Of a DNA stretch of 64,000 bases, positions 3,401-54,326 are shown one piece after another. The notes under the pieces were generated by a model. The model worked only from the letters and a program-made list of their open reading frames with translations, was not told the origin of the DNA and did not search any database. Both the position numbers and the translations under genes were made by a program. Numbering within the stretch: the first letter of the stretch is position 1; every line of letters begins with the position of its first letter. The DNA is from a virus, in the UHGV virus genome UHGV-1372779, one strand, 5' to 3'.

Positions 3401-6400
3401 ATATTTAAATCTAAAATTGCAGATCTGGAACCAGGAGTAGTACTAGTTATATAACTAGCAAATAATATTACTGAATCTCCAATAGAGGCAACAGCATTTA
3501 CTAATCTAAGTTCTGGCTCACTTCCAAATTTAAGATAAATATCTCTTCCAGATTTATGAGCCTGATAAATTTCTGTTATTTCTTCAGAAGTATATACTTT
3601 TTCTGTATCATTTATATCAATAACTATAGGCGATATAGAAGGAACTTGAATTTCTTTATATGTACCATCATTAGATAAATACTTATTTCCATTCCCAGTA
3701 CCTATAAGATTAGTATACTCACTACTAACTTGAATAGAACTACCTTCAGATAATTCATATTTATAGGAGATTAATATAGTATCTAATCCTGTATCTCCTG
3801 ATTTTTTCTCATGTAATATTTTAGGAACATAAAAACTTAAATAAGCCATTCCTTCTCCCTGACCTCTTTGTCCTACAACTTCTGTTGCTCTTATTATATT
3901 TTCTCCATCCAATATAAAGATAGGAACTCCTTTTGAATAAGCTTCTAATATACTATGTATTTCTTCTCTAGTGTATACTTTATTATCCTCTGAATCTATA
4001 ATTATTGGGGATATAGAAGATTCTATTTCCTTATAAGTTCCATCATTGGATAAAAATTTAGTTCCATTACCTAAAGAATCTAATACAAAATCCCTATCTC
4101 CATTAAACATTAAAGTAGGATCTTTTAATGTTACAGTATTATTAGCTTTGTCTAGTAAATAAGTGCCTACACTAATCATTGCATAATTTATACTGTTTCC
4201 TGCAATTATATTAAGAGAAATTATTGTATCACTTATAGGAATTACTGTACAAGGATAAATAGTTCCATTTACATTTAAATAAATCGCATACTTAGATTCT
4301 GCCTTTTCTTTAATCTCATCAAAATAATTTAATAATTCTGAATTATCATTGAATTGAGGTATAATATAAACTTTATCTAATAAGGACTCTTTAATACTAA
4401 ATTCTCTATAAGGAACCTTATTCTCATCTTCTTTTTTATCTCCTATATCAAATTGTTCTTTATTAGGCAGTGGAATTTCAGTAACATATTCTTTTAACCA
4501 TGCAGGATTATATAATCCTCCATAAGGCATTACACTTGAATTTGAAGGATAGGGATAAATTGTCGGATAGTTTTCTACTATTATTTCATTATTTTCAACT
4601 TTATGAGAACTGAAAGTTAAATAGAAATACTTATCGACTCTATAAGAGGATAAAGAAGGGTTTGCAAAATTTGACAAAGATCCATCAGGGATTCTACAGT
4701 TAAACTCTAAATAATTCCCATTCATTGACATTTGAACATTTAGAGGCAAAATTTGTGAATATCTTATATTTAAATTCTCTTTGTCCGCATCTGGCATATA
4801 GCCTCCTATCGCTGGGTTCTTTAAAAAGCAAGTTCTTATAAATATCGGAGTTCCTTCTTTAACTGCTTGGATAAATTTATTCCAAAAATCTAAGGTATAA
4901 AATTTAGGGTAAAGAACAAAACTCGGATATTTATCATAATCCACACCTGCGAAATCCCCATATCTAGACATATTTGAATACATTTGACTTAAAGCTCCAT
5001 AAATAGTATAGATGCCTCCAGTTCCTGTAACATTGGGATTCTCTTGCTCAGCAAATGTCATGTCCCAAACAAAGCTTCCTCCTTTAACTTCTAAATATTC
5101 ACCATTATCAGATAAATATTTATTACCTTCTCCACTAGTAATAATCTTATCAACTTTAGATTTATCAGAATCAGAATAATCATTACTAGATAATCCCTTA
5201 CCTTCTTCTTTGTCAACCTTCCGATTTAATAACTCCTTAATATCATTAATCTCTTCTCTAGAAATATTATCTCCATACTTAATACCTTGGAACATAATAT
5301 ATCTATTATCAGTAATGAAGTATAAAGTACCTTGATCTATCTCATTTAAAGATGAATATTCTTGAGAAGTTACATATTTTAACTTAATTTCTTGATCTTC
5401 TCCATCCCATTTAAATTGGGCTACTAACCCATCTTCAGTTTTAACTAATCGAACTCCACTATCACTTTTAGCTAAAACTAAATTAGCTTGAAGTCCTATA
5501 CTTGTTTGGATTAATTCAACAGTAGGAAGAGGATTAGAGTTATCTAATGATATACTAGAAGGTCTTTTTATAATAATAACATGAAATGTACTTTCAATAG
5601 TAATCTCAGTTGTAGTAGTTCCGTCTGTAATGACTAAGAAAATATCCCTATTAGTGAAATTTAAATACTCTTGTCTTATAACTGAATATGTAATAACATT
5701 AATAGGCTCAGCAGCTCTAAGACTGAATGGAGAAACATCCGATCTATTTATAGAATTTAAAACAATGTGTCTATTATTTATAATAGCATTAGCTATTTTA
5801 TTATAAATTTCTTCAGTTACATATTCTACTTGTAGATCCTCTATGTTTATAATCTCAATATCAGAGAATATAATTCCTTCTCCAGTTATTTCTACAAATG
5901 TTCCATTATCCATAAGAGCCTTGTTTCCGGCCCCAGTTAGTTCTGGATAACTGTCTAACTTATTCTTTCTTGCTTCAGTTAAATCATATGTAGATAATCC
6001 TTTTCCTTGAACCTTATCAACTTTGTTAATAATAGTTCCTACTAATGTTTTTTCTTCACTTGTGTAATCATTACTGGATAATCCTTTTCCAGGCTCTTTA
6101 TCTACCTTATTATCCACTGACTCTTTAGTTGCAAGTTCAACTTTCTCAGTTTTGATTAAATTATTGAGCTTGGAGATAATTATATTTTTCTCTGTTAAAT
6201 TATTATCCTTAACTGTTAATATAATCTCATTATCAGTGTCTGATATTAATATGACTGATTTAATTAATCCTGTATTATCAGTAGTATAAATATCTGCATT
6301 ATTCTCTATAGCTAGAACTAATCTATTGTAATTCTCATCTGATATTCTTCCTCCGCTTGGTATATCATTTATTTCTGATAAAATTAAAGTTTCTGAGGAT

Positions 6401-19829: not shown

Positions 19830-20635
19830 TTACATCCTCCAGTTTTTATTTTATTATTAAATTTACTTAGAGTTTTAGTACAGAATGTATTACAAGTACT
19901 TATCCTTTCTAGCAATCTCTGTGCCTCAAAGAAATTACATTGAGAGATTAATCTTCTTATAAGCTCCAAAGCCATCCATACTATATCTCTATTTCTATAT
20001 ATATTATTTAAATCATTATCTTTATATAAACAGGCTTCAAATAAATTATTATATAATATAAATTTAATCATATCCTCATAACATTTTTCTAGTTTTCCTA
20101 TTAAGAACAATTGTTCTTCAATTCCTACTAGATTTATATTATTTAAATGTTCTTTTATATAATATATATCAATTTTATGGGCTGTATAAATTCCAGATAC
20201 TATATCTAATTGAAGATACTCCTGTGAATCTGTATCATATACTATATATGATCCATCAAATAGAACTTCTTCACTTCTAGCTGCACCTGCCACAGTTTCT
20301 GCAACAAAGTTTTTCATATAATTTAAAGTAGGAAGAACTAAATGGTCAACTGTAAACCATCCATCTACTGTAGATTTATATTCTAACTTATAAGCTTCAT
20401 ATCTAGCATCTGATCCAACCACATATTTAAATCCTGTAAGTTTATTATCTGATAATTTATTATAATTTACTAAATCTAAAAATATTACATCTGATGTTCT
20501 ATAATACTCTGAAGACACCCCAGACTGTTCTGGCATAAATTTTAAATACCCTATACCTGTTGTATCTTTTAAAGTAAACCCAGTAGTTCCATTTTCAGAA
20601 AAGGTTGCTTTTAAGTTTATATTTACGTTTCTCAT
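19823..20635 (-). CDS. Hypothetical structural protein (270 aa)
   Basis: ORF between the portal and fibre genes. Confidence 0.45.
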   Translation of the reverse strand: MRNVNINLKATFSENGTTGFTLKDTTGIGYLKFMPEQSGVSSEYYRTSDVIFLDLVNYNKLSDNKLTGFKYVVGSDARYEAYKLEYKSTVDGWFTVDHLVLPTLNYMKNFVAETVAGAARSEEVLFDGSYIVYDTDSQEYLQLDIVSGIYTAHKIDIYYIKEHLNNINLVGIEEQLFLIGKLEKCYEDMIKFILYNNLFEACLYKDNDLNNIYRNRDIVWMALELIRRLISQCNFFEAQRLLERISTCNTFCTKTLSKFNNKIKTGGCNC

Positions 20636-22851
20636 TAGTATTTAACTTCATTATTATGAGGATTATTATCAAACATCTGTGCTAATTCAAGATCAACCTT
20701 TTTATTGTCAACCTCAATCTTACTCTTATTAAATTCATCTTGTAATTTAACTTTAGCCCATTCAATTTTATTTTTCTCTGAATCATCCTGAGCTTGTTGT
20801 AATTGTTGCTGAGCTTGTTGTAATTGTTGTTGCATTTGTTGAAGTTGCTGTTGAAGCTCTTTAATAACTTGATCAGATTGTTCAAGATTTTGTTGCATTT
20901 GTTGTATCTGTCCAGCTTCTTCTTTTCTTCTCTTAATAGCTTCAAGACTTTTTTGTTTATAATCGGTAAGACTTTTACATCCAACTGTTGATAAAACTAC
21001 TTCTGCATCAACTTGTCCAGCTTTAACTAATTCAAGATTTAATTCTCTAATACTTTCCATATCTCTAACAGCCTCTTGTCCATCTGCTATATGTATATCA
21101 AAGTCTGTAAGAGTATAATATTCTGGTAGAGCAGTAAAGATTTTTTGTCCTTTATCTCCTAATATAATAGCTCCAGTCAATCCATCCTTGTAAACTATTT
21201 TCCCTAAATTTAATGCATCTAACATTAGCTCTTTTAATATTAGATTCATATTAGCAAAATAAGACTTAGTTATTATAAAGGACTGTTCCATACCTACTTT
21301 AACATTGTGAACAGCATCTTTTTGCTCTATTCCCCCAATCATTTCTCTAAATACTCCTGTAATACTAGATGCTGAAAGTTCTACTCTCTCTAATGATATA
21401 TCAATGGCTTGAATTGCATTAAGAGGAACTGTATCATCATATCCATTATATATTGTATTAACAGGTGCAACTCCAGGTTCTATTTGAGAAAAATCTAATG
21501 GTGCGAATCCTTGTTTTTTATATCCTACGAATTTAAGTAATCTCATAGTCTCATCTTCGTCTAGCCAAGTTGGAATTTTACTTACATCAATGTATCCTCC
21601 TTTAGATCCTGAATTGGCTATAAGATTTTCTCTATGGAAATGTAAAATATTATACATATCTTGAAGATCAGCAGTAGCTAAGACTAATGAAAATGGTTGA
21701 TTTTGTCTAGTAGTCATAAATACTCCATTGATTGATAAAGTACAATGTTTCTTATTATCTACTGATCTAATAACATTTATATCTTTCTTTCTTATGATAT
21801 AAATATCTTCTCCAATTTTGGCATCAGAATATCTATGTTCTACACCATGTTCATCAGTATCTATATATTCAATCTCATGAACTACTATATCTCTTCTTGA
21901 TGCTGTATATATAGAATAATTTCCATCCCAAGTAGGAGATACTTCTAATCCTCCTAAAACTCCAGTACCTAATTCTGTGTTATTATCAGTTACAGCACTT
22001 ACTGGACCAGTAGATCTAATTACATAAACTTGTCCATCTTGACTTCCATGTCTAATTAATCCTTCTTCAAGTTTTTTCCTAGACTCATCGTCTAATTCTT
22101 TATGATATTTGTGAAGGATTTGTTCTGGAGTCATGTAATATCTACATACTGCTCTAGGTGAATCTTTTAAATAATAACTATTAGGATTTCTTTCAATAAA
22201 AGTATTTATAGGATTTAATGTTTCTAATTCTATATTATTTCCACTTTCACTAGGATACTCTTTATAATAAGCTGTACCTGTTATCAATAAGTCTGTAAAT
22301 AAGATTCTAGATTTAGTTCTTAAATCTATATTTCTAGATTGAGATAAATATGTAATAAGATTCTGAGCAGTTATTTCATACTCTGAAATGAAGTTCTTAT
22401 TTAAATCATTAACTAAATTATTTAAATATTCCTCTGTTAAAGGGTCAGTGGGAGGAGTTCCTTGAAGTCCAAATTTAGTTAATATTTGATTTTGAAGATC
22501 TTTGATATATATGTCTCTTATTTGGGAATCTATATATAATTGTTTTTCTCTAAATATATTAGATAATGTATTAGAATCTTTACAAGATATTTGAATATTT
22601 AAAGGTAAATCTAAAAAGTGTCCCACCAATGCATCTACATGTTTTTTAATTAATGGAATAAATTTAATTTGTGTGGGAGTTCCTATTCCATAATTTTCTT
22701 CTAGATGTTTATATTGATCTAAGTCCATTTTACCATGATAATAATTATAGGCTTTCTTTAAAGCTATCTTATCATAAACAAGATCCGAGATTGTATGATT
22801 TATTTTCTGAATTCTCTTGTCCCGCTCTTCTGTTTCTTTTTTTGTAGTCAT
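20635..22851 (-). CDS. Portal protein (738 aa)
   Basis: Size and position next to the terminase. C-terminal QQLQQ coiled coil. No capsid or terminase motifs. The call rests on synteny and size. Confidence 0.55.
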   Translation of the reverse strand: MTTKKETEERDKRIQKINHTISDLVYDKIALKKAYNYYHGKMDLDQYKHLEENYGIGTPTQIKFIPLIKKHVDALVGHFLDLPLNIQISCKDSNTLSNIFREKQLYIDSQIRDIYIKDLQNQILTKFGLQGTPPTDPLTEEYLNNLVNDLNKNFISEYEITAQNLITYLSQSRNIDLRTKSRILFTDLLITGTAYYKEYPSESGNNIELETLNPINTFIERNPNSYYLKDSPRAVCRYYMTPEQILHKYHKELDDESRKKLEEGLIRHGSQDGQVYVIRSTGPVSAVTDNNTELGTGVLGGLEVSPTWDGNYSIYTASRRDIVVHEIEYIDTDEHGVEHRYSDAKIGEDIYIIRKKDINVIRSVDNKKHCTLSINGVFMTTRQNQPFSLVLATADLQDMYNILHFHRENLIANSGSKGGYIDVSKIPTWLDEDETMRLLKFVGYKKQGFAPLDFSQIEPGVAPVNTIYNGYDDTVPLNAIQAIDISLERVELSASSITGVFREMIGGIEQKDAVHNVKVGMEQSFIITKSYFANMNLILKELMLDALNLGKIVYKDGLTGAIILGDKGQKIFTALPEYYTLTDFDIHIADGQEAVRDMESIRELNLELVKAGQVDAEVVLSTVGCKSLTDYKQKSLEAIKRRKEEAGQIQQMQQNLEQSDQVIKELQQQLQQMQQQLQQAQQQLQQAQDDSEKNKIEWAKVKLQDEFNKSKIEVDNKKVDLELAQMFDNNPHNNEVKY

Positions 22852-23128
22852 TTAAGTCTATTTTTTCTCCTACACTAAATTTAGTTAAATTGAGGTTTCT
22901 ATTTAAGAGATCCTCTCTTACATAGTCTAGAAACTCATCTATTGAAGTACATTGTACATAGATTTTACATGTAGGAGTAAGAAAATCTTTATTCATATAA
23001 AGACTAAGAATAAATCCATCCTCTTTTTCTTCTATCTTCATTTTTCCTACATATATTGCTTCATATACTTCAAGTATTATATCTTCTATTTTGCAAATTA
23101 GCTCTTGCTCTTGCGACTTTGTCATCAT
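22772..23128 (-). CDS. Hypothetical small protein (about 118 aa)
   Basis: ORF bridging the terminase and portal genes. It overlaps both neighbours in other frames and the true start is probably at ATG 23125. Confidence 0.3.
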   Translation of the reverse strand: MMTKSQEQELICKIEDIILEVYEAIYVGKMKIEEKEDGFILSLYMNKDFLTPTCKIYVQCTSIDEFLDYVREDLLNRNLNLTKFSVGEKIDLNDYKKRNRRAGQENSENKSYNLGSCL

Positions 23129-24743
23129 TTATATCATATTGTAAATTAGCTAAATCTTGTAAATCTTGAATTGGATCAGGCTTAACTCCATAGTGTTTAA
23201 TCCCATTATCATCATACCAATATCCAAAAGGTTTCATCTTATTTGCATTCATTTTCTTTGCAACAGCTCCCCATGTTCTCATCTCTTGATCACCTATTTC
23301 ACACATCCCCATCGCAGCAATAATATCGAATTTTCTCTTGTCTTCAAAAGAGTATTTACTTAACTCTTCTAACATAGCTAAATCATCTATTGTAAAGCAA
23401 TATTCCAACACAAAATCAGCTATAAGTTCTAGATAATATTCAATTGTTTGTTTAGATGGGTATACCCCAAACATATCAGTATTAGTTACTTTATTAGTAG
23501 GGTTAACTGAGCTTGGCCGCCTCATTAAAAGACCTTGCTTTTTTCTATCCTTAAAATGGTTTACAATAGCAGTTCTTGAACTTTCAAGTACAGCTTGACA
23601 ACCATAAAATTCTAATAATTTAATTGTTTGATTATATGCTTCTTTAATATTTCTAGGACGATCTTTATATATAGCCACATATTTAGGAGGCTCCAATCCA
23701 AATGTTCTTCTTTTAATTACTAAACAGTAATCAGAAACATCTTTTTGACCAGTCGATTGATCTATACCTTGGTCAATAGAGTCAATTCCTGCTACATACA
23801 AATTCTTAAACAGAGCTCCATTCTCATCATGTCTGGGAAGCTCATATATTCTAACTTTGCCATTAGGAGAAGGTAAAAATTTGAGAATGTCTTGATTTAA
23901 ATCTTTACTATAGGAGTAGTCTACTATTCCAACTTTAGGTTTAATTCCGGAACCATGAACTTTAATATCCGTTATTCTAGCTGCTATAGCTACTGAATCA
24001 AAGATATTATCACCCTGTCTAGAAAGTGCTTCATCTGGGTTGTAACAATATTCAGCACAATATGTAAGATAACCTTCTGGAGATCCAGCTTTGGCATCTC
24101 TTTTCTTATTATAGTACTCAATCGCTTTTTTCTTATTACATACTCCTCTTTTATCTATAATTCCATCTATAATAACTACACTATATGCAGGAATAAAATA
24201 AGATGTAACTACATATTCACCATCTGCCGTGTGATTATGTTTATATGGAAGTATATCATATTCTTTTGGGTTATAAAATAATTCATTTAATCCAGCTACG
24301 GCAGGACCTTCATCACCTCCAGTACCATATCCTATCTTAAATCCTATTCTAGATCCACCCACTATAATAAGAGCATCACCTTGAATCCATTTTTTAATCA
24401 AAACTGGATCAGATCCAACCTCTTCATATAATAACATCTCAGCTCTATCACCTCTAACCTTACTAGGTTTATCAGCAACAATTCCAGTAATCATAGATCC
24501 AAAACCAGACTCATTACCTTCTCTATCTTTCTTAGAGGCTTTTTTCTGAGTAGCTGTATTAACAGCTTGTCTAAGATGTTTAAACCCTCCTTCTGTTTCT
24601 GTATTTAAATAGTCTAATTGTCTCCAACATTTTTCTAATGTCTTAGAAACAAATAGATCTGTGAATGCTGTGTATATAGCTTGTTGTCTTCTCTTAACTG
24701 TATAAAGATTTACACCTAAACAGGCTCCCATTTCTGACCATCC
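23070..24743 (-). CDS. terL: Terminase large subunit, exon 2 (Walker B plus RNaseH-like nuclease domain)
   Basis: RAEMLLYEEVGS is Walker-B-like. YVAGIDSIDQG...DYCLVIKRR matches the start of a terminase nuclease domain. The ORF lacks any Walker A, and its frame is open upstream only to the stop at 24744..24746. Confidence 0.6.
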   Translation of the reverse strand, partial: GWSEMGACLGVNLYTVKRRQQAIYTAFTDLFVSKTLEKCWRQLDYLNTETEGGFKHLRQAVNTATQKKASKKDREGNESGFGSMITGIVADKPSKVRGDRAEMLLYEEVGSDPVLIKKWIQGDALIIVGGSRIGFKIGYGTGGDEGPAVAGLNELFYNPKEYDILPYKHNHTADGEYVVTSYFIPAYSVVIIDGIIDKRGVCNKKKAIEYYNKKRDAKAGSPEGYLTYCAEYCYNPDEALSRQGDNIFDSVAIAARITDIKVHGSGIKPKVGIVDYSYSKDLNQDILKFLPSPNGKVRIYELPRHDENGALFKNLYVAGIDSIDQGIDQSTGQKDVSDYCLVIKRRTFGLEPPKYVAIYKDRPRNIKEAYNQTIKLLEFYGCQAVLESSRTAIVNHFKDRKKQGLLMRRPSSVNPTNKVTNTDMFGVYPSKQTIEYYLELIADFVLEYCFTIDDLAMLEELSKYSFEDKRKFDIIAAMGMCEIGDQEMRTWGAVAKKMNANKMKPFGYWYDDNGIKHYGVKPDPIQDLQDLANLQYDINDDKVARARANLQNRRYNT

Positions 24744-24746
24744 TCA

Positions 24747-25771
24747 TGGTCTTGTTGTCCTATAAGCTTTTTATCCTATAGTTCTGGGAGTTTCCTCCTT
24801 ACTTATTACCGAAATAGAAATAATAAGATATTCTGATTTAATCATCAGACAGTTCAGCGTACATTTTCACCCAAACAATGGGGCCGACACTCTTGGAGAT
24901 ATTATTTCAATCTCTACGCGTTACGGTGGTCAATTAATAATTGACTTACCTCGGTATTAACATAGTAATTAAATTTATTGAACTTTCTACTCATATAAAA
25001 ATTAGAATTATCATATAGTAAATGGAATATTTTAGAAACCTCCTTCTTTGATGATGTACTTATTCTATACATATCATCTCTAGATAAATAATTTAAGTTG
25101 ATTTTAATATTATTTAATCTAAAGAAATCTATTATATCTTCTAATATAGAAGAATATTTAGAACAGATCTCAAACTTAAATCTAAACCTATCTGATTTCC
25201 CTTTTTCAGAAGCAATCCATCCAATAATAGATCCATCTCCATCAAAATACCCTCTAATAAAATGAGGAATGAGATCTTGAGAAATATTAGGAATTTTTAA
25301 TTCTTTATAAGTTTTATTATAACCAAATCCTATATCATTTAGAGAATTTACCAATATGGTGCTATTTATATCAACTCCTTCTTGAGGTCTTCCAATATAG
25401 GTTTTATCTCCTCTTCCTTTAATTTCATAAGAATCAATATGAAACCTTCTACTATTAGGAGAAATATATTTAGATATTAACTCTATAATGTCCCTGTCTT
25501 CTTCACATAATTTAACTCTAAAAGTTTTTCTTTTCTCATCAATAGACCCATCAGCAGCAAAAAATCCTAATAGGTATGCTTGAATTTCAGTTACAATATT
25601 ATTAAAAAATTCATGTCTAACTTCTCTTTTACTTCCATTATTAGTATATAATGGACAAATCTTGTTAAGAATCACTTCTTGGTCATTTACATTCATAATT
25701 TTTATATTTTTAATCGTGTTATTTTTTAATCACCTTAGCCTTCACCGATTTTGCCGGATTTAAAATATACA
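24747..25771 (-). mobile_element. Putative group I intron with LAGLIDADG homing endonuclease, interrupting terL
   Basis: About 1 kb separates two terminase-like ORFs. It contains a LAGLIDADG ORF flanked by GC-enriched, structured, non-coding segments (24747..24913 and 25697..25771). Exon 1 ends in ..FALKSRG (P-loop-like) followed by a stop inside the putative intron. Confidence 0.5.
24914..25696 (-). CDS. LAGLIDADG homing endonuclease (260 aa)
   Basis: Two LAGLIDADG motifs: LLGFFAADGSI and IRGYFDGDGSI. Confidence 0.8.
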   Translation of the reverse strand: MNVNDQEVILNKICPLYTNNGSKREVRHEFFNNIVTEIQAYLLGFFAADGSIDEKRKTFRVKLCEEDRDIIELISKYISPNSRRFHIDSYEIKGRGDKTYIGRPQEGVDINSTILVNSLNDIGFGYNKTYKELKIPNISQDLIPHFIRGYFDGDGSIIGWIASEKGKSDRFRFKFEICSKYSSILEDIIDFFRLNNIKINLNYLSRDDMYRISTSSKKEVSKIFHLLYDNSNFYMSRKFNKFNYYVNTEVSQLLIDHRNA

Positions 25772-26617
25772 TTACTGTATATTGGGACAGGCATTTATCC
25801 CTCTAGACTTTAATGCGAAGACATTTAGTCCTAATTTTTTACAAAGTTCCACATAGTGGAAATATTTATATTGTTCTGCAATAAATGTAGGAAATGAATC
25901 ATTTCTTACAGTTACCTTAGCCTTAGAATCAGATTTAAGAACAGCAGGAGAATCCATTCTATAGAAATTTAAATAGAAGTAATTATCTCCTGTTAAAGTA
26001 TATCCATTATATGTATAACCATATATACATCTTCTTTGTTGCTCTAACCAATATTTAACATAAGAAGGACCATTTATCTCAAATGAACTATACTTGCCAG
26101 TAGCTTCTTTAGTCATAGCAGGCTCTCTAAACCAATCTGGATCAAAATCTAATCCCTGTGTTTCAGTGATTGGTCTATATCCAGTTAATTCATAAGATAA
26201 ATCTGGGTCAAAATATTCTATTGGATCATCTATTCTCACATCCCAATTTGTGAACTTAACATCTTCTCCATTTACATGATATAACTTTCTAAATTCTTCA
26301 TTATCAAAGTTTTCTCTAGTCTGATCTGCAATTTCTAAAGATTGTCTTATGTAATCATTATCGTACAAAACTAAATCTTCTTCTTTTGGATCATCTAATA
26401 AATGCTCTGGAATGTGATAAATAGTTGCTATTTCTTCATCTACTAAATCTTGAGAGTTTATTTTATCTAATAATTCCTGTGTTGTTTCTCTTTTACGATA
26501 AGCTCTTTTAGGCTTAGATTCCTTTTCGAGTTTAGCTTTTTCCCTGGCTTTCTTCTCTTCCTCTTTCTTTCTAAGCTTTTCAGCATTACCTTTAGCCCCA
26601 AAAGTCTTCTTAGCCAT
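25772..26617 (-). CDS. terL: Terminase large subunit, exon 1 (N-terminal region up to Walker A), 3' end approximate
   Basis: Basic N-terminus. Ends ..LNVFALKSRG (KSRG P-loop-like) then reads through into the intron to a stop. Together with exon 2 it gives about 830 aa. Confidence 0.45.
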   Translation of the reverse strand: MAKKTFGAKGNAEKLRKKEEEKKAREKAKLEKESKPKRAYRKRETTQELLDKINSQDLVDEEIATIYHIPEHLLDDPKEEDLVLYDNDYIRQSLEIADQTRENFDNEEFRKLYHVNGEDVKFTNWDVRIDDPIEYFDPDLSYELTGYRPITETQGLDFDPDWFREPAMTKEATGKYSSFEINGPSYVKYWLEQQRRCIYGYTYNGYTLTGDNYFYLNFYRMDSPAVLKSDSKAKVTVRNDSFPTFIAEQYKYFHYVELCKKLGLNVFALKSRGINACPNIQ

Positions 26618-44896: not shown

Positions 44897-44983
44897 GCCG
44901 AAGTGGTGAAACTGGATATACACGTTAGACTTAAGATCTAATGGTCAGTAATGGCCGTGTGGGTTCGAGTCCCACCTTCGGTA
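44897..44983 (+). tRNA. tRNA-Leu (anticodon UAA), class II
   Basis: Acceptor gccgaag/cttcggt. Anticodon arm ttaga-cuUAAga-tctaa. Long variable arm. T-arm gtgggttcgagtcccac. Confidence 0.7.
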
Positions 44984-45036
44984 CACTTTTCTCTTTTATG
45001 ATATTTTTTCATAAAGGTTAGTATTTAGTGTGTTAG

Positions 45037-45069
45037 GTAAGGAGTAGAAATACTCCTTACTATTTATTA
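45037..45069 (+). terminator. Rho-independent terminator-like hairpin after tRNA-Leu
   Basis: gtaaggagta-gaaa-tactccttac followed by tatttatt. Confidence 0.45.
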
Positions 45070-45301
45070 GATTTTAAAATTAAATATATGACTTTAGAAA
45101 TAATTTTATGGATAATTAGCTCTGCATCATTTTTAACTTCAATGCTCATTATAACACTAATACTTGCTGATGATAGGGTTCTTTCTTCACTACAACGTGC
45201 AATAAGTTGCATTATGTTACTCTTTTATTCATAATGAGCTTTATTCAAGCAATAAGTTCAATGATTGAATTAACAATTCAACAATTAAAATAAATTACAT
45301 A

Positions 45302-45372
45302 GCCTCAAGGTCAAATGGTTAAGATGTCCGACTGTCTATCGGTACGGAGCGGGTTCGATTCCCGTTGGGGCT
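45302..45372 (+). tRNA. tRNA-Asp (anticodon GUC), isotype tentative
   Basis: Acceptor gcctcaa/ttggggc (one G-U). Anticodon loop cuGUCua. T-arm gcgggttcgattcccgt. Confidence 0.5.
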
Positions 45373-45378
45373 GCATAT

Positions 45379-45453
45379 GTGAAGTTACCAGAGTGGCTTA
45401 ATGGCTCAGACTGCAAATCTGTTGATTCGGGAGTTCGAATCTCCCACTTCACT
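45379..45453 (+). tRNA. tRNA-Cys (anticodon GCA)
   Basis: Perfect acceptor gtgaagt/acttcac. Anticodon loop cuGCAaa. T-arm gggagttcgaatctccc. Confidence 0.7.
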
Positions 45454-45482
45454 CAGTATTAATTAAATTTAAATTTAAGATT

Positions 45483-45863
45483 ATGTGGTTAATAATTATT
45501 TTAGCAGTAGTATTTATTATTTGTGTTATAGGAGCATTTAAGTTAAATGATGATTACTTTGAGCCACAAATATTTTGTGGATTTGCATCTTTTGCAACTG
45601 GAATTACAATATTAGTGATGTTGTGTAGTATTCCTGATAATGATTATGAGAAGAAGATCCTTCAAAAATCTGAGCTTATCACACTACAATTAAGTGATAC
45701 TACTTTGTCTAATATAGAAAGATCTATTATTATAAAAGAGGCTATAGAATTAAATAATACTTTATTAGATAATAAGGTATATCATAATAATAAATTCTAT
45801 GGAGTTATTTATTCTGATAAAATTGCAGAAATTCCTTATGTTAAATTGAGAAAAGATAAATAA
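45483..45863 (+). CDS. Membrane-anchored hypothetical protein (126 aa)
   Basis: N-terminal TM helices. ORF between tRNA genes. Confidence 0.4.
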   Translation: MWLIIILAVVFIICVIGAFKLNDDYFEPQIFCGFASFATGITILVMLCSIPDNDYEKKILQKSELITLQLSDTTLSNIERSIIIKEAIELNNTLLDNKVYHNNKFYGVIYSDKIAEIPYVKLRKDK

Positions 45864-45917
45864 ATTATTAATCCATTTTAACACAGAGTTTGCAAGTTCT
45901 CTAAAAACTTGCATTAT

Positions 45918-46000
45918 TCCTCCTTCGCATAGTGGTTGATTGCACTGGCTTTGTAACCCAGTCCTGAAAAGGCACGTCAGTTCGAATCTGACAGGAGGAT
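45918..46000 (+). tRNA. Atypical class II tRNA-like gene (long variable arm, 9-nt anticodon loop cuuuguaac or 7-nt loop with a C-C closing mismatch); isotype unresolved
   Basis: Perfect acceptor tcctcct/aggagga. D-arm gca-agtggttgatt-tgc. Stem actgg/ccagt. Variable arm tcctgaaaaggcac. T-arm gtcagttcgaatctgac. Confidence 0.45.
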
Positions 46001-46043
46001 CAATTAAATAACACATTAAATAACACATTAAATAGATAACAAT

Positions 46044-46568
46044 ATGACATTAGATGAGTATTATGAGAAAGTAAAAGAAGAAATTTCTCAAATCAAAAAA
46101 GATTATCCTTGTATTTTACCTAAAAATCAAAAAATTCAGTGTGTAAAAGAAATGATTAGAGATATAGATCAAGGATATAGAGTATATGTTTGTACGAGAG
46201 TTATGCATAAATATCAGACGATTTTAGAAATTGTATTTCCTTACAATAAGGCAATTCTAGTTCCTAAAAGATCTTTTACACCACCTATTCTTGATGATCC
46301 TACTATGTATGAGTATTATCTCTCAGCTATTGTAAAAATGGAAGAATATGAAAAGCTTATGAAAGAAGAAATAGAGGAAAATAATCCCACAAAAGCACTT
46401 GCACTCATTAATGATGCAGATTCTTTTGTGACTCTTGCACTAGGATTACCTGAATTTCTTGACTACTTTCCTAAAATGCTTTGGTATGATGGTGGATGGT
46501 TTAGCTCTATGGAAGACAGAAGAAAAGCTTTAGTAGAAACTTTAATGAAATTGGAAAATCATGACTAA
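46044..46568 (+). CDS. Hypothetical protein, tandem paralogue A (174 aa)
   Basis: Shares a YPCIL-containing N-terminus with ORF 46561 and a C-terminal domain (LPEFLDYFP...RRKAL) with the minus-one frame downstream of ORF 46561. Confidence 0.45.
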   Translation: MTLDEYYEKVKEEISQIKKDYPCILPKNQKIQCVKEMIRDIDQGYRVYVCTRVMHKYQTILEIVFPYNKAILVPKRSFTPPILDDPTMYEYYLSAIVKMEEYEKLMKEEIEENNPTKALALINDADSFVTLALGLPEFLDYFPKMLWYDGGWFSSMEDRRKALVETLMKLENHD

Positions 46569-47158
46569 AGAAGAATATATAGAATATCTTGAAAGGAGAA
46601 AAGAAGATTTCAAAAGAATGTATCCTTGTATATTATCAATTAAAGAAAAAATTGATATTATAGAAAACATTTTAGACGCTATTAAAATCACCAAAAGAGG
46701 AATAGGAAGAGTTTATATTTGTCATGAGTTACAAAACATGAGCACAAAATATAATTTATCCTCTGTAAATATAGGACTTGATGATAATGTTTTATTTACA
46801 ATTCTTGCTAAAAAAGAAGATTTTTGGTATCTACTTGACGAAGGAGATAATGATACTCCTCTTTCTGAAGAAGATGTATTAAAGAGAATTTTAGAAAAAA
46901 ATTCCTTCTGCAGAATACTTAGAAGATGCTTCTTATTATCAACCTTCTTTTCACTCATCTTATGATATATTAGAAGATGATTTTTATGAATTATATGAAG
47001 ACTCCTCTTCCCTATCAATTATAGCATTAATGCTTCCAGAATTAATTGATTATATGCCTTTAACTCTATATGAAGATGTAAGTTATTTTGATTCTACAGA
47101 GGAAAGAATTCAAGCATTAGAAAATATATTACAAGACTTAAAAACACAAATCCAATAG
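46561..47158 (+). CDS. Hypothetical protein, tandem paralogue B; needs a minus-one frameshift at the A7 run 46895..46901 to reach the conserved C-terminal domain (0-frame ORF ends at 46965)
   Basis: The 0-frame stops at 46965 with a junk hydrophobic tail. The minus-one frame after G-AAA-AAA-T reads ...KKIPSAEYLEDASYY...SLSIIALMLPELIDYMPLTLYEDVSYFDSTEERIQALENILQDLKTQIQ, which is homologous to the paralogue A C-terminus. Confidence 0.45.
46895..46901 (+). repeat. A7 run within slippery heptamer-like G-AAA-AAA-T
   Basis: At the point where paralogue B's reading frame diverges from its conserved C-terminal domain. Confidence 0.8.
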
Positions 47159-47457
47159 GGCAGTGAAACTTCATCACTGGTAGAATTCTAGTTAAGGGTG
47201 GATATTATAATTTGTTCGAAAATACTAGATATTAGGTTACTTTGGGACTATGTTCAATCTCCTGATTTAACAAGAACTACTAACAAAGAATTGAGCCTCT
47301 TAGATAGTGATTTATTTAACATTGACACAGAGGTAGTTTATCTATCATAAAGTCCAAATGGTTAGACCATCAGGGATATTAATAGAGTTAGGCTTTACTT
47401 ATAGTTATCCTTATGTTAAATAATCTCACTATCTAAGATTATATTAAATAGTTAGAT

Positions 47458-47730
47458 ATGAAAATAGATTATAGAAAAGCATTTATATCAATGGAGAATA
47501 TATCAGAATGTGCTTGTAGATTTAAGGCATTCAAGATATATGATGATCTTCAAATTGCATTAGATTTGTTAAGAGAATATTCAGAATTGATTAGATTCTG
47601 TTCTGGATCTTCTAATATAAAGGAGTATGAAAGGCTTAAATCAGCCTTTAAACTTCATGTAGACAAAATCAAATCTGATTTTAGTAGAATAGATCTAATC
47701 AATAACCTTTATTTTCCTGATGAGTTATGA
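47458..47730 (+). CDS. Hypothetical protein (90 aa)
   Basis: ORF. Confidence 0.4.
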   Translation: MKIDYRKAFISMENISECACRFKAFKIYDDLQIALDLLREYSELIRFCSGSSNIKEYERLKSAFKLHVDKIKSDFSRIDLINNLYFPDEL

Positions 47731-47978
47731 TTATTAATTTAGATTACACAGGGAAATCTCTGGAGGAAATATATCGTCCTGATGAGAATGATATAATTAT
47801 TGATAATAACAATAACATTATTCATGAGAAGGAGATAGAAAGAAGTCCAAAAGTTGTTCTTAATGGTGTTACATTTTACTATTATAGAACATCTAAATTA
47901 GCTGAAAAGTTAGCTGGACACAAAGTAACTCTTGAGATTGATATAACTACTAGAAAGTTAGAGTTTATATTTAAATAA
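47727..47978 (+). CDS. Hypothetical protein (83 aa)
   Basis: ORF overlapping the previous stop (ATGA). Confidence 0.4.
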   Translation: MIINLDYTGKSLEEIYRPDENDIIIDNNNNIIHEKEIERSPKVVLNGVTFYYYRTSKLAEKLAGHKVTLEIDITTRKLEFIFK

Positions 47979-48090
47979 TATTAAAATCCTTGTCCAGTAC
48001 TAATAATTCACTGCAGGATCTGTTATTAATGTCATGGACTAAAGTAATGATGAGTAAGGGATCTCATCTTATCTTTTTACAAAACTTTAA

Positions 48091-48486
48091 ATGTTTAGCA
48101 ATTGTGTTAATTTCAAGAAACAGGGTGATGTGGGAATGTGTTATGCTATAGCATATTATTCGAAACTGGGATGGACAATCTCAATTCCAGTTACTGATTC
48201 TCAAGATTATGATTTAATAGTAGATACAGGAACTAAGTTGTTAAAGGTGCAAGTAAAGACTACTACTCAAAAAAGTAATTATGGTGTTTATATTGCAAAT
48301 TTAAAAACTTGTGGAGGTAATAGGAGCGGAGACACTATTAAGACCTTTGAAAGTAATCAGTCAGATTTAATATTTATACTAACAGATAGTGGTGATTGTT
48401 ATTCAATTCCTAGAGATGCTGTTTCTTCTAAGACTACAATTAATTTAGGCGAAAAAGTTTTAATGTACAAGGTGTCATTATTTTAA
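48091..48486 (+). CDS. PD-(D/E)XK-like small nuclease (resolvase/AHJR-like, 131 aa)
   Basis: YDLIVDTGTKLLKVQVKT fits the D..(E/Q)xK core of small restriction-endonuclease-fold proteins. Confidence 0.4.
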   Translation: MFSNCVNFKKQGDVGMCYAIAYYSKLGWTISIPVTDSQDYDLIVDTGTKLLKVQVKTTTQKSNYGVYIANLKTCGGNRSGDTIKTFESNQSDLIFILTDSGDCYSIPRDAVSSKTTINLGEKVLMYKVSLF

Positions 48487-48490
48487 TAAT

Positions 48491-48579
48491 GGGTATGCAG
48501 CGACGATGGTGGTGTCGTGCGAGACTGTAAATCTCGTCCCTTAGGGTAAACATTGGTAGTTCGAATCTACCCATGCCCA
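48491..48579 (+). tRNA. tRNA-Tyr (anticodon GUA), class II
   Basis: Acceptor gggtatg/catgccc. Anticodon arm cgaga-cuGUAaa-tctcg. Variable arm tcccttagggtaaacat. T-arm ggtagttcgaatctacc. Confidence 0.75.
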
Positions 48580-48581
48580 CA

Positions 48582-48660
48582 TGCGGGTGGGTGAAATGGA
48601 TATACAAATCATTCCAGCCTCATAAGCTGGAGATACTAGGTTCGATTCCTAGACCCGCTA
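48582..48660 (+). tRNA. tRNA with CAU anticodon (Met or Ile2); U1-U72 terminal mismatch
   Basis: Anticodon arm ccagc-cuCAUaa-gctgg. T-arm ctaggttcgattcctag. Confidence 0.6.
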
Positions 48661-48690
48661 CAAAAGTCACTTACAATACTGCATATTTAA

Positions 48691-48762
48691 GAACGAATAG
48701 CTTAGCGGATAAAGCAATTATCTTGGATATAATAGTTCTGGGTTCGATTCCCAGTTTGTTTA
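48691..48762 (+). tRNA. tRNA-Pro (anticodon UGG), AT-rich
   Basis: Acceptor gaacgaa/tttgttt (G-U pairs). Anticodon arm attat-cuUGGau-ataat. T-arm ctgggttcgattcccag. Preceded by the ACTTACAATA motif at 48669. Confidence 0.6.
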
Positions 48763-48771
48763 GTAAAATTA

Positions 48772-48984
48772 GTGACTATTTTTAAATTAAAATCAAAATC
48801 AAAGATTATGGAAACTTATATTAAAATGTATAAACAAAGATATTATGGTTATTACTGTAATATGTGTAAGGATTTAGGAATTAAACCTGTTCCATACTGT
48901 GACTTTGATAAGAATTTATACAAAGAAACAAAACTTTTATTAAAAGATTCAATATTTTGGGCTAGTTCTGGATTTGACAGGTGA
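48772..48984 (+). CDS. Hypothetical protein (70 aa)
   Basis: Small ORF after the tRNA cluster. Confidence 0.3.
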   Translation: MTIFKLKSKSKIMETYIKMYKQRYYGYYCNMCKDLGIKPVPYCDFDKNLYKETKLLLKDSIFWASSGFDR

Positions 48985-49719
48985 TTAGAACAGTATTAAG
49001 ACATGTAGGAAGGCAGTTTCCTTATAAAGGCAAAACTAATAAATGCTAAAGGTAGAGTAATCTCCTTCTCTAGACCTGCAGCTATTGCAGCGTAAGAGTT
49101 GGGTTGTCAACTGACCTAGAAACAGAATAGTTGTAAATATTAAAAAAGGATTGTATTAATATAAGCAAACCAGAATCCTTGAACCTGTGAATCTCTAGGT
49201 TGTAAATATATTTTTTATATTTCCCTTTTAGAAGGTGACAGACCATTGGGTAATTCCATAGGAGCGCTGTTAGGCTTATGAAGTTTCCTTATTCTTTAAA
49301 AATAAGGTGGTGGAGTAGTAATCCATGATTACCCCAAAGTTTGGTAGTTTGTGTATAGCTGAAAAATGGACAGTTGTGTGATATTGTATAAGCACACAAG
49401 TCAGTAAAACTATCTATAATTGATCTATGTGATTTATAGATCATAAACATGTATATCTTAATACTAAGTAAATTGTCTGGACCGGAGTTCGACTCTCCGC
49501 TAGTCCACGGGAACAAGTTAGGTGTGCTCAGGGTAAAGCTCTGAGGGTTAGATATGGATGGAATCAGAAGTACTAGTCTCCTTCTGGATTGAACTAAGAA
49601 AAGAGTATATAAGCATAGTGGACGCACTAAATTTGTGAAATTACTCCACCAAAAGAGATTTTGGTCTAGTAGCATCTAACTTTTTTAAAAATATTAACAT
49701 TTTAAATAACAAAAACAGT
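48985..49719. ncRNA. 735-bp ORF-free structured region: degenerate group I intron-like element or other structured RNA
   Basis: No plausible ORF (only a low-complexity minus-strand ORF). Contains group-I-like blocks: ATTGCAGCG..GGGTTGTCAAC (P-element-like, 49093..49120), GATATGGATGGAATCAGAAGTACTAGTC (J6/7-R-like, 49551..49578) and AAGCATAGTGGAC (S-like, about 49618). Long-range pairing GGTGGAG-TAG-TAAT (49308..) with ATTACTCCACC (49640..). tRNA-T-arm-like hairpin tggac-cggagttcgactctccg-ctag-tcca at 49479..49508. Confidence 0.35.
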
Positions 49720-50166
49720 ATGGAAAGAATTAACTTCACAGAAGAGAACTTAGCTCAGCTAAAAGATCTTGCAGTAGAGTTCTTATTTAATAGAACTACA
49801 TTTAATGGTCCTATGAGTACTCAATATGATGTAACTCAAGTGATACATGACACTACTATGAGTTCTTTAAAGTCTATGTTCAATAGCATTAAATCTGCAA
49901 TAGATAAGAAATCTAATGTAAGTAGATGGACTACTTCAGCTGCAGAACAAAAAGAATTGAAGATTCTTGAGGATAAGAAAGAGTTCTTAGACCTACTAAT
50001 GGGATATAAACTCTATCAAGCTCAGGAAGCTGAAGTTGCCAGAGAAGCAGAAGCTCTTAGAGCTGAGATTAAATCTCTTGAGGAAGATACAAAAACTCCT
50101 GAAGAGAAGCTTAAAGAGAAGAAAGAAGCTTTATCTAAGTTAGAAAATTTCTTCAAAATGGTTTAG
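49720..50166 (+). CDS. Hypothetical coiled-coil protein (148 aa)
   Basis: ORF with its own ATG immediately after an in-frame stop. Confidence 0.45.
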   Translation: MERINFTEENLAQLKDLAVEFLFNRTTFNGPMSTQYDVTQVIHDTTMSSLKSMFNSIKSAIDKKSNVSRWTTSAAEQKELKILEDKKEFLDLLMGYKLYQAQEAEVAREAEALRAEIKSLEEDTKTPEEKLKEKKEALSKLENFFKMV

Positions 50167-50312
50167 GTTTATAAAACAGTAGCAAGGTTATAGTTTATAT
50201 TTCTTGCTACTGCATGTTACTTACAATCTAACAAACTTGTCTGATCTGCAAGTAAAAAAGGATCTCCATAGCTATCATCTTTATTAATAATTAAGTTTAA
50301 TCAAGTAACATT

Positions 50313-51836
50313 ATGAAAGTAGAATTAAATAACAAAGAAACAAATCCTTTTTCTGGGTTAAGAAACTGTTTGAAGATTTTTAACAACGGTGGTCAAGGCA
50401 TTACATTAAGTCAAGATGATTTAAATAAAGCCTGGGAAGAGGTAAAAGATAGTAAAGAGAAGAAAGAGATGTTTTTCTCTCTATTATTCTCATTAGGAGA
50501 TATTACTGCCAGACAACACAACATCTTTAGAGGTCAAAAAGTTGATTCTGGAGGTAATTCTCAAAGGGAAATTTTTTTCAACTGTATGGAGTGGATGAAA
50601 AAGAATATCCCAGATCAATTCTTTAAATTCATGAAATCTCATTTATTTAATGAGTACACTTGTTTTGATAATCTATTTAGGAATAGAGTCCAAACTCAGG
50701 GTAAGAAGATCATATCTATTAAATCTGTGTTGAACACATCTGATAATAGATATTTCAATGAGTTATTAGATTACACTGAATCTATTATCAAAGGTAAGAA
50801 TCCTTATGATAAGATGCTTGTAGCTAAATTCTTAACTCTTCCTAGATTATCACCAAGAAAAGAGCATAAACAAATGCTTCCTCAAACTAAAGAATTGATG
50901 AAAGCAAAGGCTAAATTCTTAGAAGAATTATCTAAGAGAATGAATTGGCCTTATAAAATTGAAGGAAATATACTAAACTTCAAAGGATATAGAGAGTGGA
51001 GGAAGGAATACAACTCTACATTAGAATCTGTTCTTTTCAGTACTGGAAAGATTAAAGATTTTGATGAAATTCAGTTTTTGGAATGGTTGGATAGAATCCC
51101 TGCACAAGCTAGATTCAGAGTGAGAAACAGAATCATGTTTGAGAAAGAGGGAACATTTAAATATCCTAAACTGAAAGAGTGGTATGAAAAGTGGGAGAAA
51201 TACAAAGAAGAGAAACAGGCAGAGCAAAGAGTTCTTGAAGAGAAAGTTCGCCAAGGACAGGCTAGTGTAGAGGATAAAGTTAAATTGGAAAAGGTTAAAA
51301 AAGAAGCCAAGGTAACAGTTGGATCTACTAACTTCCAAGAACTTTATAAAGAGATCCTTAGTGGAAGGATTGATAAACTTAAATTGGAGTCTTTTGTGAA
51401 TAACAAAGTAAGTCTTCAATATAATAGTTTAGTGATTATTGATGACTCCGGATCTATGGGTGGTGCGCCTTTTAACTTTGCTAAATTTATTGCATCTGTT
51501 TGTCTTGTTAAAAATCCAGATGATGATGGAAGAAACCTTTTAGGATTCTTCAATTATGATTCTAGACTATACGGAAGTATGGATAGAGCTGGAAGTAAGA
51601 CTCCTAATAGCTTAATGAGATCAAGTGTGAAGAATATTGTTAAGAAGCCTTTTGTAGATCCTCATAAGAGTTTCTATGAAAACTATCAAAACATTTCTTC
51701 ATTCTGCCAAGGTGTATTCCAAGGTGGAGGTACTAGAATAAATAGTATCCCAAAAGGATTTGCTGAACAAGCTAATAATAATCCTGTATTATTAGATGAA
51801 CTTATGCAATACCCAGTTTGGACAATTGTTAGTGAT
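50313..51836 (+). CDS. Ro60/Rsr-like protein, exon 1: helical N-terminal (TROVE-like) region plus first part of vWA domain
   Basis: About 370 aa helical N-terminal region, then a vWA domain starting VIIDDSGSMGG (MIDAS DxSGS at residues 376..381) with GGGTR downstream. Ends ...YPVWTIVSD followed by a stop at the intron boundary. Confidence 0.45.
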
Positions 51837-53045: not shown

Positions 53046-53354
53046 GGTGAATGGAATAATATGTATTCTCCAGAAGCTTCGATGAATGAATTCTTCAGAG
53101 ATTGTGAGAATCTTTTAGGATTTAGACCATTTATCATTGCGATAGATATTCAAAATCCTAATTGGGCATATCAGACATTTAAAGCTGATAGATTCACTGG
53201 TATAGATAATATGATCTATATTCCAAGTAACCCAGCTCAAATTGAGCAAATTCTTACAAATTTCAAGGACATTGAAATCTTTGATGTCTATACTCCGTTA
53301 CTCTCTTTATACAGAAGTAATAGATATGATCTAGTAAGGACTAATGTAATTTAG
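53046..53354 (+). CDS. Ro60/Rsr-like protein, exon 2 (C-terminal part of vWA domain)
   Basis: Joining ...TIVSD to GEWNNMYS... recreates the vWA h-h-h-(T/S)DG-x-x-N motif (IVSDGEWN). Continues with FIIAIDIQNP... Confidence 0.5.
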   Translation, partial: GEWNNMYSPEASMNEFFRDCENLLGFRPFIIAIDIQNPNWAYQTFKADRFTGIDNMIYIPSNPAQIEQILTNFKDIEIFDVYTPLLSLYRSNRYDLVRTNVI

Positions 53355-53429
53355 TCCTTACTATTAAAATGACTCAATTATTATAAAGAACAATACAGAT
53401 ACTTACAATATTACAAGAATCAATTTATG

Positions 53430-53454
53430 CAGGTTCAACTCCTGTCTTTTGCAT
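53430..53454 (+). pseudogene. tRNA 3' fragment (T-arm plus 3' acceptor strand) without upstream D/anticodon arms
   Basis: gcaggttcaactcctgt plus cttttgc plus a. The complementary 5' strand gcagaag, with a D-arm and a cuGAGaa anticodon arm, lies just downstream (53466..53510). This could be a permuted or rearranged gene. Confidence 0.35.
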
Positions 53455-53589
53455 TAGCAGAAGTGGCGAAATTGGTATACGCACTGGTCTGAGAAACTAG
53501 GAATATAATATTCAATAGTATCTATTTATGACTTTTCTTTTCCTTGCATGATATACTGATACTTACAAAATCAAAACCATCTGTGGGTC

Positions 53590-53648
53590 GAGGGTTCGAA
53601 TCCTTCAAATCGCGCGTTTTGCGAATTTAGCTCAGTAGGTTTAGAGCA
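53590..53648 (+). pseudogene. tRNA 3' fragment followed by a tRNA 5' fragment (acceptor plus D-arm only)
   Basis: gagggttcgaatccttc-aaatcgc-g, then gcgaatt-ta-gctcagtaggtttagagca. The two acceptor strands are complementary except for one A-A. No anticodon arm follows. Confidence 0.35.
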
Positions 53649-53731
53649 ATAGACAAAAAAGTATCATTCAGATAAGGAAATAATATTTTAGAATAAAAAT
53701 TATAAAGTCACTTACAATATTATCATAATTC

Positions 53732-53805: not shown

Positions 53806-53840
53806 GTGTAATTATTATAGTGACTAATTTTATATTTTAA

Positions 53841-53952: not shown

Positions 53953-53980
53953 CAAAAGCTACTTACAATAAGATTTAAAT

Positions 53981-54314: not shown

Positions 54315-54326
54315 CTGTTTTTAAAT

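Follow-up and report, generated by a model that had tools for sequence, protein, structure and literature searches.

Analysis of a stretch of 64,000 nucleotides from the virus genome UHGV-1372779 (the whole stretch is referred to here as the window) indicates that its gene encoding the terminase's large subunit (TerL), on the minus strand, is interrupted inside the Walker A motif by a mobile group I intron, which is predicted to splice. We put the probability of this reading at about 90%. The original prediction, made from the letters of the window, had proposed a TerL gene split at Walker A by an intron with a LAGLIDADG endonuclease, and an intron-less allele, an exact excision and a covarying group I RNA now support it. 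The open reading frames (ORFs) and the boundaries derived from them are as follows.

25772..26617, minus strand: upstream ORF, 281 amino acids, C-terminal end ...FALKSRGINACPNIQ / ...NVFALKSRGINACPNIQ
24914..25696, minus strand: LAGLIDADG homing endonuclease ORF, 260 amino acids, intact, with the motifs LLGFFAADGSI and IRGYFDGDGSI
23070..24731, minus strand: downstream ORF, 553 amino acids, N-terminus MGACLGVNLY, containing LLYEEVG, YVAGIDSID and DYCLVIKRR
25797..26617, minus strand: predicted TerL exon 1, comprising codons 1-273 and the first two bases of codon 274 (Ile), 3' end ...AAG TCT AGA GGG AT
24745..25796, minus strand: predicted group I intron, 1052 nt, start AAAUGCCUGUCCC, end ...GACCAUG, with the terminal G at 24745
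23070..24744, minus strand: predicted TerL exon 2, 5' end A GGA TGG TCA GAA ATG GGA (...I G W S E M G...)

The three ORFs and the motifs of the downstream one are as first described. In a PHROG profile search the two outer ORFs matched consecutive positions of the profile phrog_6681, "terminase large subunit" (positions 71-187 with an E value of 2.4e-17 for the upstream ORF, 242-734 with 2.4e-45 for the downstream one), so they are halves of one TerL gene and the proposed relationship of the upstream ORF to TerL is confirmed. The expected alignment to Terminase_6N/6C did not materialize; no terminase family of Pfam matched either half or the full-length protein, even at E<=1, and the family is too divergent for these models.

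A homologue search retrieved an intron-less allele from another metagenome (P0001, 831 amino acids, 99% identical to the concatenated halves), which reads ...FALKSRGIGWSEMGACLGV... across the junction and lies on a contig (L001) with the same gene neighbourhood as the window. The intron boundaries were set by comparison with this allele. Window positions 26617..25797 joined to 24744..23070 give 2496 nt, equal in length to L001:6001-8496, with 21 mismatches and no gaps (99.2% identity), and neither exon contains a frameshift or stop. Removal of 25796..24745 restores the TerL reading frame with the protein junction ...FALKSRGI|GWSEMGAC. The insertion point lies between the second and third bases of the Ile274 codon (AGA GGG AU | A GGA UGG UCA GAA AUG), and the predicted spliced RNA reads ...AGAGGGAU|AGGAUGG, or, in longer form, ...AAGUCUAGAGGGAU|AGGAUGGUCAGAAAUG. 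The ORF coordinates first given thus stand, but they are not the exon limits. The last 8 codons of the upstream ORF, NACPNIQ*, are intron sequence, with exon 1 stopping at 25797, while exon 2 begins at 24744, 13 nt upstream of the ATG at 24731.

The codons for G-W-S-E follow directly on an in-frame TGA and are upstream of this first ATG; they could therefore be expressed only after splicing. This bears on the possibility of a split ("fractured") terminase, in which the 281- and 553-residue polypeptides would assemble non-covalently around a free-standing endonuclease gene with no splicing at all. In public gene calls the C-terminal part does appear as a protein of its own, beginning with MGAC (P0003, P0008-P0011 and P0100). 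However, a two-polypeptide terminase would lose the invariant G275, S277 and E278 (GGA TGG TCA GAA before the first ATG), the spacers carry covarying group I structure with splice-site pairings that follow the exon sequence, and versions without the ORF retain ~290 nt of structured RNA exactly at the site (both described below). We regard such a terminase as highly improbable.

The RNA of the intron has a group I architecture. The 5' splice site follows a U, and a U·G wobble closes P1, GGGAU/GUCCC, in which the exon strand GGGAU is 25801..25797. P10 is formed by CCU (25791..25789) and AGG, the three bases with which exon 2 begins. Elements of the predicted structure, all on the minus strand, are listed in 5' to 3' order of the transcript.

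25784..25791: internal guide sequence, GUCCC (25788..25784) for P1 and CCU (25791..25789) for P10
25697..25783: 5' ribozyme segment, from RNAalifold and pair counts
25783..25764: P2 hairpin with a GUAA loop, in the 5' segment
25757..25753: P3 5' strand, CCGGC, in the 5' segment
25748..25743: P4 5' strand, UCGGUG, followed by J4/5 AA
25740..25738: P5 5' strand, GGC, in the 5' segment
25733..25725: P5a 5' strand, GUGAUUAAA, in the 5' segment
24745..24973: 3' ribozyme segment, where the nhmmer family profile matches 24983..24734 with an E value of 6e-76
24973..24965: P5a', UUUAAUUAC, closing a stem with GUGAUUAAA across the endonuclease ORF
24961..24959: P5', in the 3' segment
24956..24951: P4', UACCGA, in the 3' segment
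24950..24925: P6/P6a, in the 3' segment
24919..24915: P7 5' strand, GCGUA, in the 3' segment
24914..24896: P7.1, an extra hairpin between P7 and P3'
24888..24884: P3', GUCGG, in the 3' segment
24882..24870: P8, in the 3' segment
24861..24857: P7 3' strand, UACGC, in the 3' segment
24849..24832: P9, in the 3' segment
24827..24802: P9.1, in the 3' segment
24798..24787: P9.2, with a GAAA loop, in the 3' segment
24781..24760: P9.3, in the 3' segment

An R-like element, AACGCGUA... (xxAACGCGUA), and an S-like element, AAAAUGUACGCU, can be recognized beside the consensus of the Rfam family RF00028, AACGACUA / AAGAUAUAGUCU. With one hairpin between P7 and P3', the intron may belong to subgroup IA of the scheme of Michel and Westhof. 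The structured, GC-enriched non-coding segment first noted between the ORFs was also found: GC content is 0.38 at 24700-24899 compared with 0.21-0.29 in the endonuclease ORF and ~0.30 in the exons, and the 3' 231 nt of the intron fold more stably than shuffled sequences (z = -2.46).

Related copies were gathered through split TerL homologues and pattern scans. In all seven copies compared, the splice sites show a U at position -1, a terminal G and a P1 of five out of five base pairs with U·G, while P10 is 3-7 bp long (7/7). In the divergent copy L129, whose TerL is only ~59% identical, P10 is ACCG/CGGU and P1 is GGGCU/GGCCU, where C-G replaces A-U in a compensatory change; L005 has UCACAU/GUGUGA as P10 at a second TerL site. 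P1 and P10 in L129, as well as P10 at the second site of L005, thus change along with the exon sequence, and the pairings track the exons. The P5a stem of L129 (GUAAUCAA/UUGAUUAC) differs from that of the window by compensatory changes.

Covariation was evaluated on an alignment of eight ORF-deleted intron copies (A1, made with MAFFT, 390 columns). RNAalifold independently recovered P2, P4, P5, P6/P6a, P7, P7.1, P8, P9, P9.2 and P9.3, with compensatory changes at 33 of its 61 pairs. When the full P1-P10 structure was scored, including the P3/P7 pseudoknot, 94.3% of cells could pair, compared with 36-44% when partners were slid by 1-3 columns; double (compensatory) changes were seen at 37 of 78 pairs versus 5-10 in the slid controls, and none of 500 shuffles attained any of the observed pairing or covariation values. 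By helix, the paired cells amounted to 100% in P3 and P7, 96.8% in P4/P5, 97.2% in P6 and 75% in P8, and compensatory changes affected two pairs each in P3 and P7, seven in P6 and three in P8. P7 alone occurs as GCGUA/UACGC, GCAUA/UAUGC and GCGCA/UGCGC. With an effect this large, and with RNAalifold agreeing independently, the pairing is unlikely to be due to chance. The intron class, at first left as group I or II, is thus settled by architecture and strong covariation in favor of group I.

Other intervening elements, namely a group II intron, an intein or programmed translational bypassing, were given next to no credence. Bypassing was rejected for this 1052-nt gap with its own ORF; the bypassing gaps known so far are far shorter. 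Inteins do occur elsewhere in the TerL of relatives (P0004, P0007), but an intein is excluded here, as the insert runs into a TAA 8 codons in when read in the TerL frame and 1052 nt is not divisible by 3. Recent work has described group II introns in phages (PMC12350094). Nevertheless, the insert holds no reverse-transcriptase ORF but one of the LAGLIDADG type, gives no group II match in Rfam, and has a 5' end reading AAAUG, not GUGYG. Reassignment of stop codons was likewise rejected, with no suppressor anticodon among the 27 tRNAs of the window.

The ORF between the halves was confirmed as a LAGLIDADG gene by its matches to Pfam LAGLIDADG_3 (E 1.8e-9, 38.2 bits against a cutoff of 22.5) and phrog_4645 (E 1.1e-32), with a LAGLIDADG_1 match over the second half and WhiA-type matches as well; a sequence search of the Protein Data Bank (PDB) gave no match. 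Two LAGLIDADG motifs indicate a single-chain enzyme. The ORF is looped out of the P5a stem, an extension of P5, and its last ~25 codons (...NKFNYYVNTEVSQLLIDHRNA*) double as P5a', P5', P4', P6/P6a and the P7 5' strand, the UAG stop overlapping P7. Compared with the ORF of L129, it is 60% identical without gaps, and 9 synonymous versus 4 non-synonymous codon differences separate it from that of L006, small counts that are consistent with a functional gene. The UAG of the window (24914..24916) aligns with a CAG (Gln) in L129 (~1145), where the ORF extends 19 codons further, through P7.1 and P3' and into P8, so the reach of the ORF into the ribozyme core varies among copies.

The distribution of the intron suggests mobility. 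Near-identical copies with the ORF are present in the independent assemblies L006 (IMG/VR) and L058, partial copies lie at the ends of L002 and L130, and introns lacking the ORF occupy the same site in L003 (293 nt), L004 (280 nt) and L005 (319 nt). These shorter introns keep the 3' end of the ORF that doubles as ribozyme core, so they are deletion derivatives of an ORF-carrying ancestor. Scanning for further copies with the pattern TCCGGCAAAATCGGTGAA gave one true copy and two chance matches in IMG/VR and, in the metagenomes, 120 stretches among which only L058 is a real intron, the others being GC-rich chance matches. With the intron profile, nhmmer found no second copy of the TerL intron in the window. 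A sister intron of the same RNA family, with the 5' exon GGGAU and the guide GUCCC as at the first site, is located at a second TerL site (AAMGM|CEIGDQ) of relatives, a site that is uninterrupted in the window:

L005 ~5431..6298: sister intron at site 2, with an HNH endonuclease ORF (5619..6137) beside P7.1
L129 2747..3022: sister intron at site 2, ORF-less
L130 1777..1881: sister intron at site 2

At the first site the intron is present in the window, L006 and L058 and absent from L001, with its 99.2% identical exons, and from L132/L133; such presence or absence at one site among near-identical alleles is what homing typically leaves. Five of the 21 exon differences between the window and L001 are synonymous changes within 12 nt of the junction, where 0.19 would be expected in 22 nt (Poisson P ~1.6e-6), the flanks being TCT AGA GGG AT|A GGA..GAA in the window and TCC AGA GGT AT|T GGT..GAG in L001. 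All intron-bearing alleles, including those with TerL only 65-73% identical, retain GGGAT|AGGATGG, while L001 and L132/L133 differ there; the corresponding intron-less sequences are AAAGTCTAGAGGGATAGGATGGTCAGAA for the "healed" site, AAAGTCCAGAGGTATTGGTTGGTCAGAG for the natural site of L001 and AAAGTCTAGAGGAATCGGATGGTCTGAG for L132. Taken together, active homing by the LAGLIDADG ORF is probable.

The motif at the insertion site is very likely a lambda-like deviant Walker A, KSRGIGWS. The original prediction of a KSRGxxxS motif rebuilt by splicing is consistent with the intron-less allele, which has KSRGIGWSE (P0001/L001). Across 22 homologues L269, K270, R272, G275, S277 and E278 are invariant and G273 nearly so. 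The spliced protein was modelled with AlphaFold (mean pLDDT 74.9, and 75-92 near the insertion site); the model places a strand at 265-270, a loop at 271-275 and a helix at 276-290, and its best PDB match is T4 gp17 (E 1e-13), with the large terminases of T7, D6E, HK97, Sf6 and P74-26 also retrieved. We take KSRGIGWS to correspond position for position to KSARVGYS of lambda gpA (pattern K-S-x-x-h-G-aromatic-S), and its S-R-x-h-G-x-S/T presumably corresponds to SRQLGKT of T4 gp17. Exon 2 contains the rest of Walker A (GWS), the Walker B LLYEE (E381/E382 invariant) and the C-motif TGGD, followed by the nuclease domain AGIDSID with invariant D595/D598.

Sequence searches of the PDB with the TerL protein and with the 22-sequence profile gave no match. 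By tblastn, the protein is 25-30% identical to annotated crAss-like TerL and 40-46% identical to two unannotated contigs of human-gut phages; the related contigs are 145-186 kb long. In one of the unannotated contigs, MT835539.1 (30003..34283), the TerL match falls in three pieces across 4.3 kb, which suggests that introns or inteins interrupt this gene too. An intein with a LAGLIDADG domain (Pfam Intein_splicing and LAGLIDADG_3) was found in the TerL of L002 (550..3276, P0007) and in P0004, between GYG and TGGD in the conserved C-motif region; its carriers also have the Walker A intron. The TerL of the window lacks this type of intein.

Several points weigh against the interpretation of a splicing, mobile intron in Walker A. 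Splicing is deduced here from comparisons of sequence, as are the activity of the endonuclease and its target, and the Walker A assignment, though very likely, is based on conservation, a modelled fold and the motifs of T4 gp17 and lambda gpA. The covariation set comprises eight sequences, some of them closely related, the structure was derived in part from those same sequences, so that the slid control is somewhat flattering, and MAFFT misplaces P1 in two members, for which reason P1 and P10 were also scored by hand. The clustering of differences at the junction could reflect co-conversion, selection on P1/P10 or cleavage-resistant intron-less alleles. Finally, RF00028 had no match in the window, either in a scan of the whole window at the gathering threshold or at E<=10 in 24500-26000, and the scores of the ORF-less relatives (33.3 and 16.3 bits) fall below the 50-bit gathering score.

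The Rfam scans of the window called only tRNAs and a transfer-messenger RNA (tmRNA), so the covariance models that had been suggested as a check found neither a group I nor a group II intron there, and they yielded sub-threshold RF00028 alignments in the ORF-less copies. That of L004 covers the full model (33.3 bits, E 4.9e-7) and puts P1, P2, P3, P4, P5, P8 and P9 as in the proposed structure; the 16.3 bits are those of L005. Part of the shortfall is explained by the inserted ORF of 783 nt and by the additional hairpin, P7.1. Search filters also matter, since a scan of four loci together missed the TerL introns and a single-locus scan caught one. In the four-locus scan an intron splitting the portal gene of L003 (7103..7307), a textbook group I intron, was detected with 83.4 bits (E 5.6e-20), so the search worked and the TerL intron represents a divergent lineage.

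This missing match, together with the metagenomic origin of the assembled window, could also point to a decayed relic that no longer splices, in a defective phage with a TerL pseudogene. We consider this very unlikely, as the same intron with an intact ORF was recovered in at least three independent assemblies (the window, L006 and L058) with 21 differences in 1052 nt, compensatory changes maintain the helices across copies in TerL genes only 59-73% identical, and the exons are 99.2% identical to an intact allele and free from frameshifts and stops.

If the TerL intron is a functional ribozyme, its RNA would fold into a P3-P8 core with the P3/P7 pseudoknot, the extra P7.1 and four hairpins of the P9 type. 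Cleavage after the U at 25797 would be the work of an external guanosine; once released, exon 1 would attack the position after the terminal G at 24745, with P10 (CCU/AGG) positioning exon 2, yielding a continuous TerL mRNA of 831 codons. The unspliced RNA would give only a fragment of 281 amino acids without a complete P-loop, so packaging would depend on splicing. The LAGLIDADG enzyme would most likely cleave intron-less TerL alleles at the conserved site during co-infection, and repair would copy the intron and short exon flanks into the cleaved allele.

Introns in phage genes have precedents. The terminase gene of Lactobacillus phage LL-H reportedly contains a group I intron (Mikkonen and Alatossava, 1995). 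In the subgroup IA introns of T4 td, nrdB and nrdD, the enzymes are of the GIY-YIG or HNH type and are encoded in P6 or P9 loops, and both P7.1 and P7.2 are present. These introns share with the window intron the presence of extra hairpins between P7 and P3', an ORF in a peripheral stem and an ORF end that overlaps the core, but in the window the ORF is of the LAGLIDADG type and sits in a P5 extension, and one P7.x hairpin is seen. The window family also resembles RF00028 (Intron_gpI), whose P1-P9 are reproduced on an ORF-less homologue and whose R and S elements have visible counterparts.

Group I introns in TerL are documented in Bastillevirinae, with splicing in vitro and in vivo for SIOphi TerL, and some of the phage TerL introns require cell factors to splice (PMC11878797). 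As in the window, the essential packaging ATPase is interrupted, often with an endonuclease ORF, and splicing is needed for TerL. However, the enzymes listed there are HNH/VSR endonucleases, whereas the window has a LAGLIDADG enzyme in a Crassvirales-like phage, with a host of another phylum. Compared with these phage TerL introns, that of the window is inserted inside Walker A and its RNA is too divergent for RF00028. Mycobacteriophages have P-loop inteins in TerL, described as "classic" (Kelley et al. 2016, PMC5050341). These are, like the window element, endonuclease-bearing selfish elements in the most conserved motif of an enzyme, where inexact loss is lethal, but they are in-frame inteins removed at the protein level, whereas the window element would be removed at the RNA level.

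Parallels are also found in crAss-like phages dense in introns and inteins. According to Yutin et al. 2021 (PMC7886860), Zeta-group genomes measure 145-192 kb, are rich in tRNAs and hold as many as 14 group I introns and 3 inteins, inteins rather than introns are typical for TerL of the Delta group, and introns were identified by their endonuclease domains. The Delta and Zeta groups share with the window the TerL lineage, many tRNAs, endonuclease-bearing introns in core genes and TerL inteins in relatives; the portions of that paper considered here describe neither the Walker A site nor the RNA structure and ORF-less copies. An intron in TerL that makes packaging dependent on splicing is therefore an already known situation, as far as these sources go (PMC11878797, PMC7886860). 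What appears to be new is the insertion site in Walker A, a divergent lineage not called by Rfam, and a natural series that runs from empty site to intron with ORF, ORF-less intron and HNH-carrying sister at a second site.

A more ambitious possibility, which we consider doubtful, is that these introns form a distinct IA-like group I lineage specialized on crAss-like TerL and missed by covariance models, with production of the packaging ATPase regulated via splicing. The same scaffold and GGGAU 5' exon would then serve two TerL sites with the cargo swapped, LAGLIDADG in the P5 loop or HNH beside P7.1. Its position in the P-loop, and the sequence that the endonuclease frame shares with the catalytic core, are what could make production of the packaging ATPase a regulated step. 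If so, splicing would be GTP dependent and would compete with translation, and the intron's role would go beyond that of a neutral parasite.

The consequences for annotation are more immediate. Public gene calls split TerL, and 8 of the best 120 homologue clusters begin with MGAC/MGAN. As TerL is the main phylogenetic marker of crAss-like phages, introns that go unrecognized distort both trees and counts of genes. A covariance model for this intron lineage could be seeded with the alignment and structure obtained here. The natural series is also convenient for studying intron gain, endonuclease loss and retargeting. The TerL intron would be a clear-cut case of a homing element that occupies an essential enzyme's most conserved motif, leaving the known workings of such elements unchanged.

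The gene following TerL is intact in the window:

20635..22851, minus strand: portal gene

A second LAGLIDADG ORF was found at 52047..53006 on the plus strand, sharing 33% identity with the enzyme of the TerL intron (tblastn E 2e-20). It lies within a region (51837..53042, plus strand) between the ORFs 50313..51839 and 53043..53354, which resemble halves of one gene, the upstream half (50313..51839) having a vWA-like DDSGSMGG motif. This region is probably the "first intron" implied by the original prediction, which had called that of TerL a second one. An Rfam scan of 51750-53150 gave no match; by eye, the flanks of the ORF contain the group I elements AAUUGCGGGAAAC ... AAUCCGCAGCC and AAGGUAUAGUCUAAUC, a P9 hairpin and a possible P1, AGUGAU/GUCACU.

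The tmRNA called by Rfam at 48959..49510 scored 49 bits against a threshold of 47 and spans 552 nt compared with 374 positions in the model. It was not reported by ARAGORN run on the window and may be either interrupted or a marginal call. The tRNA genes, 27 in total, are spread over 44897..60142 on the plus strand and cover most amino acids.

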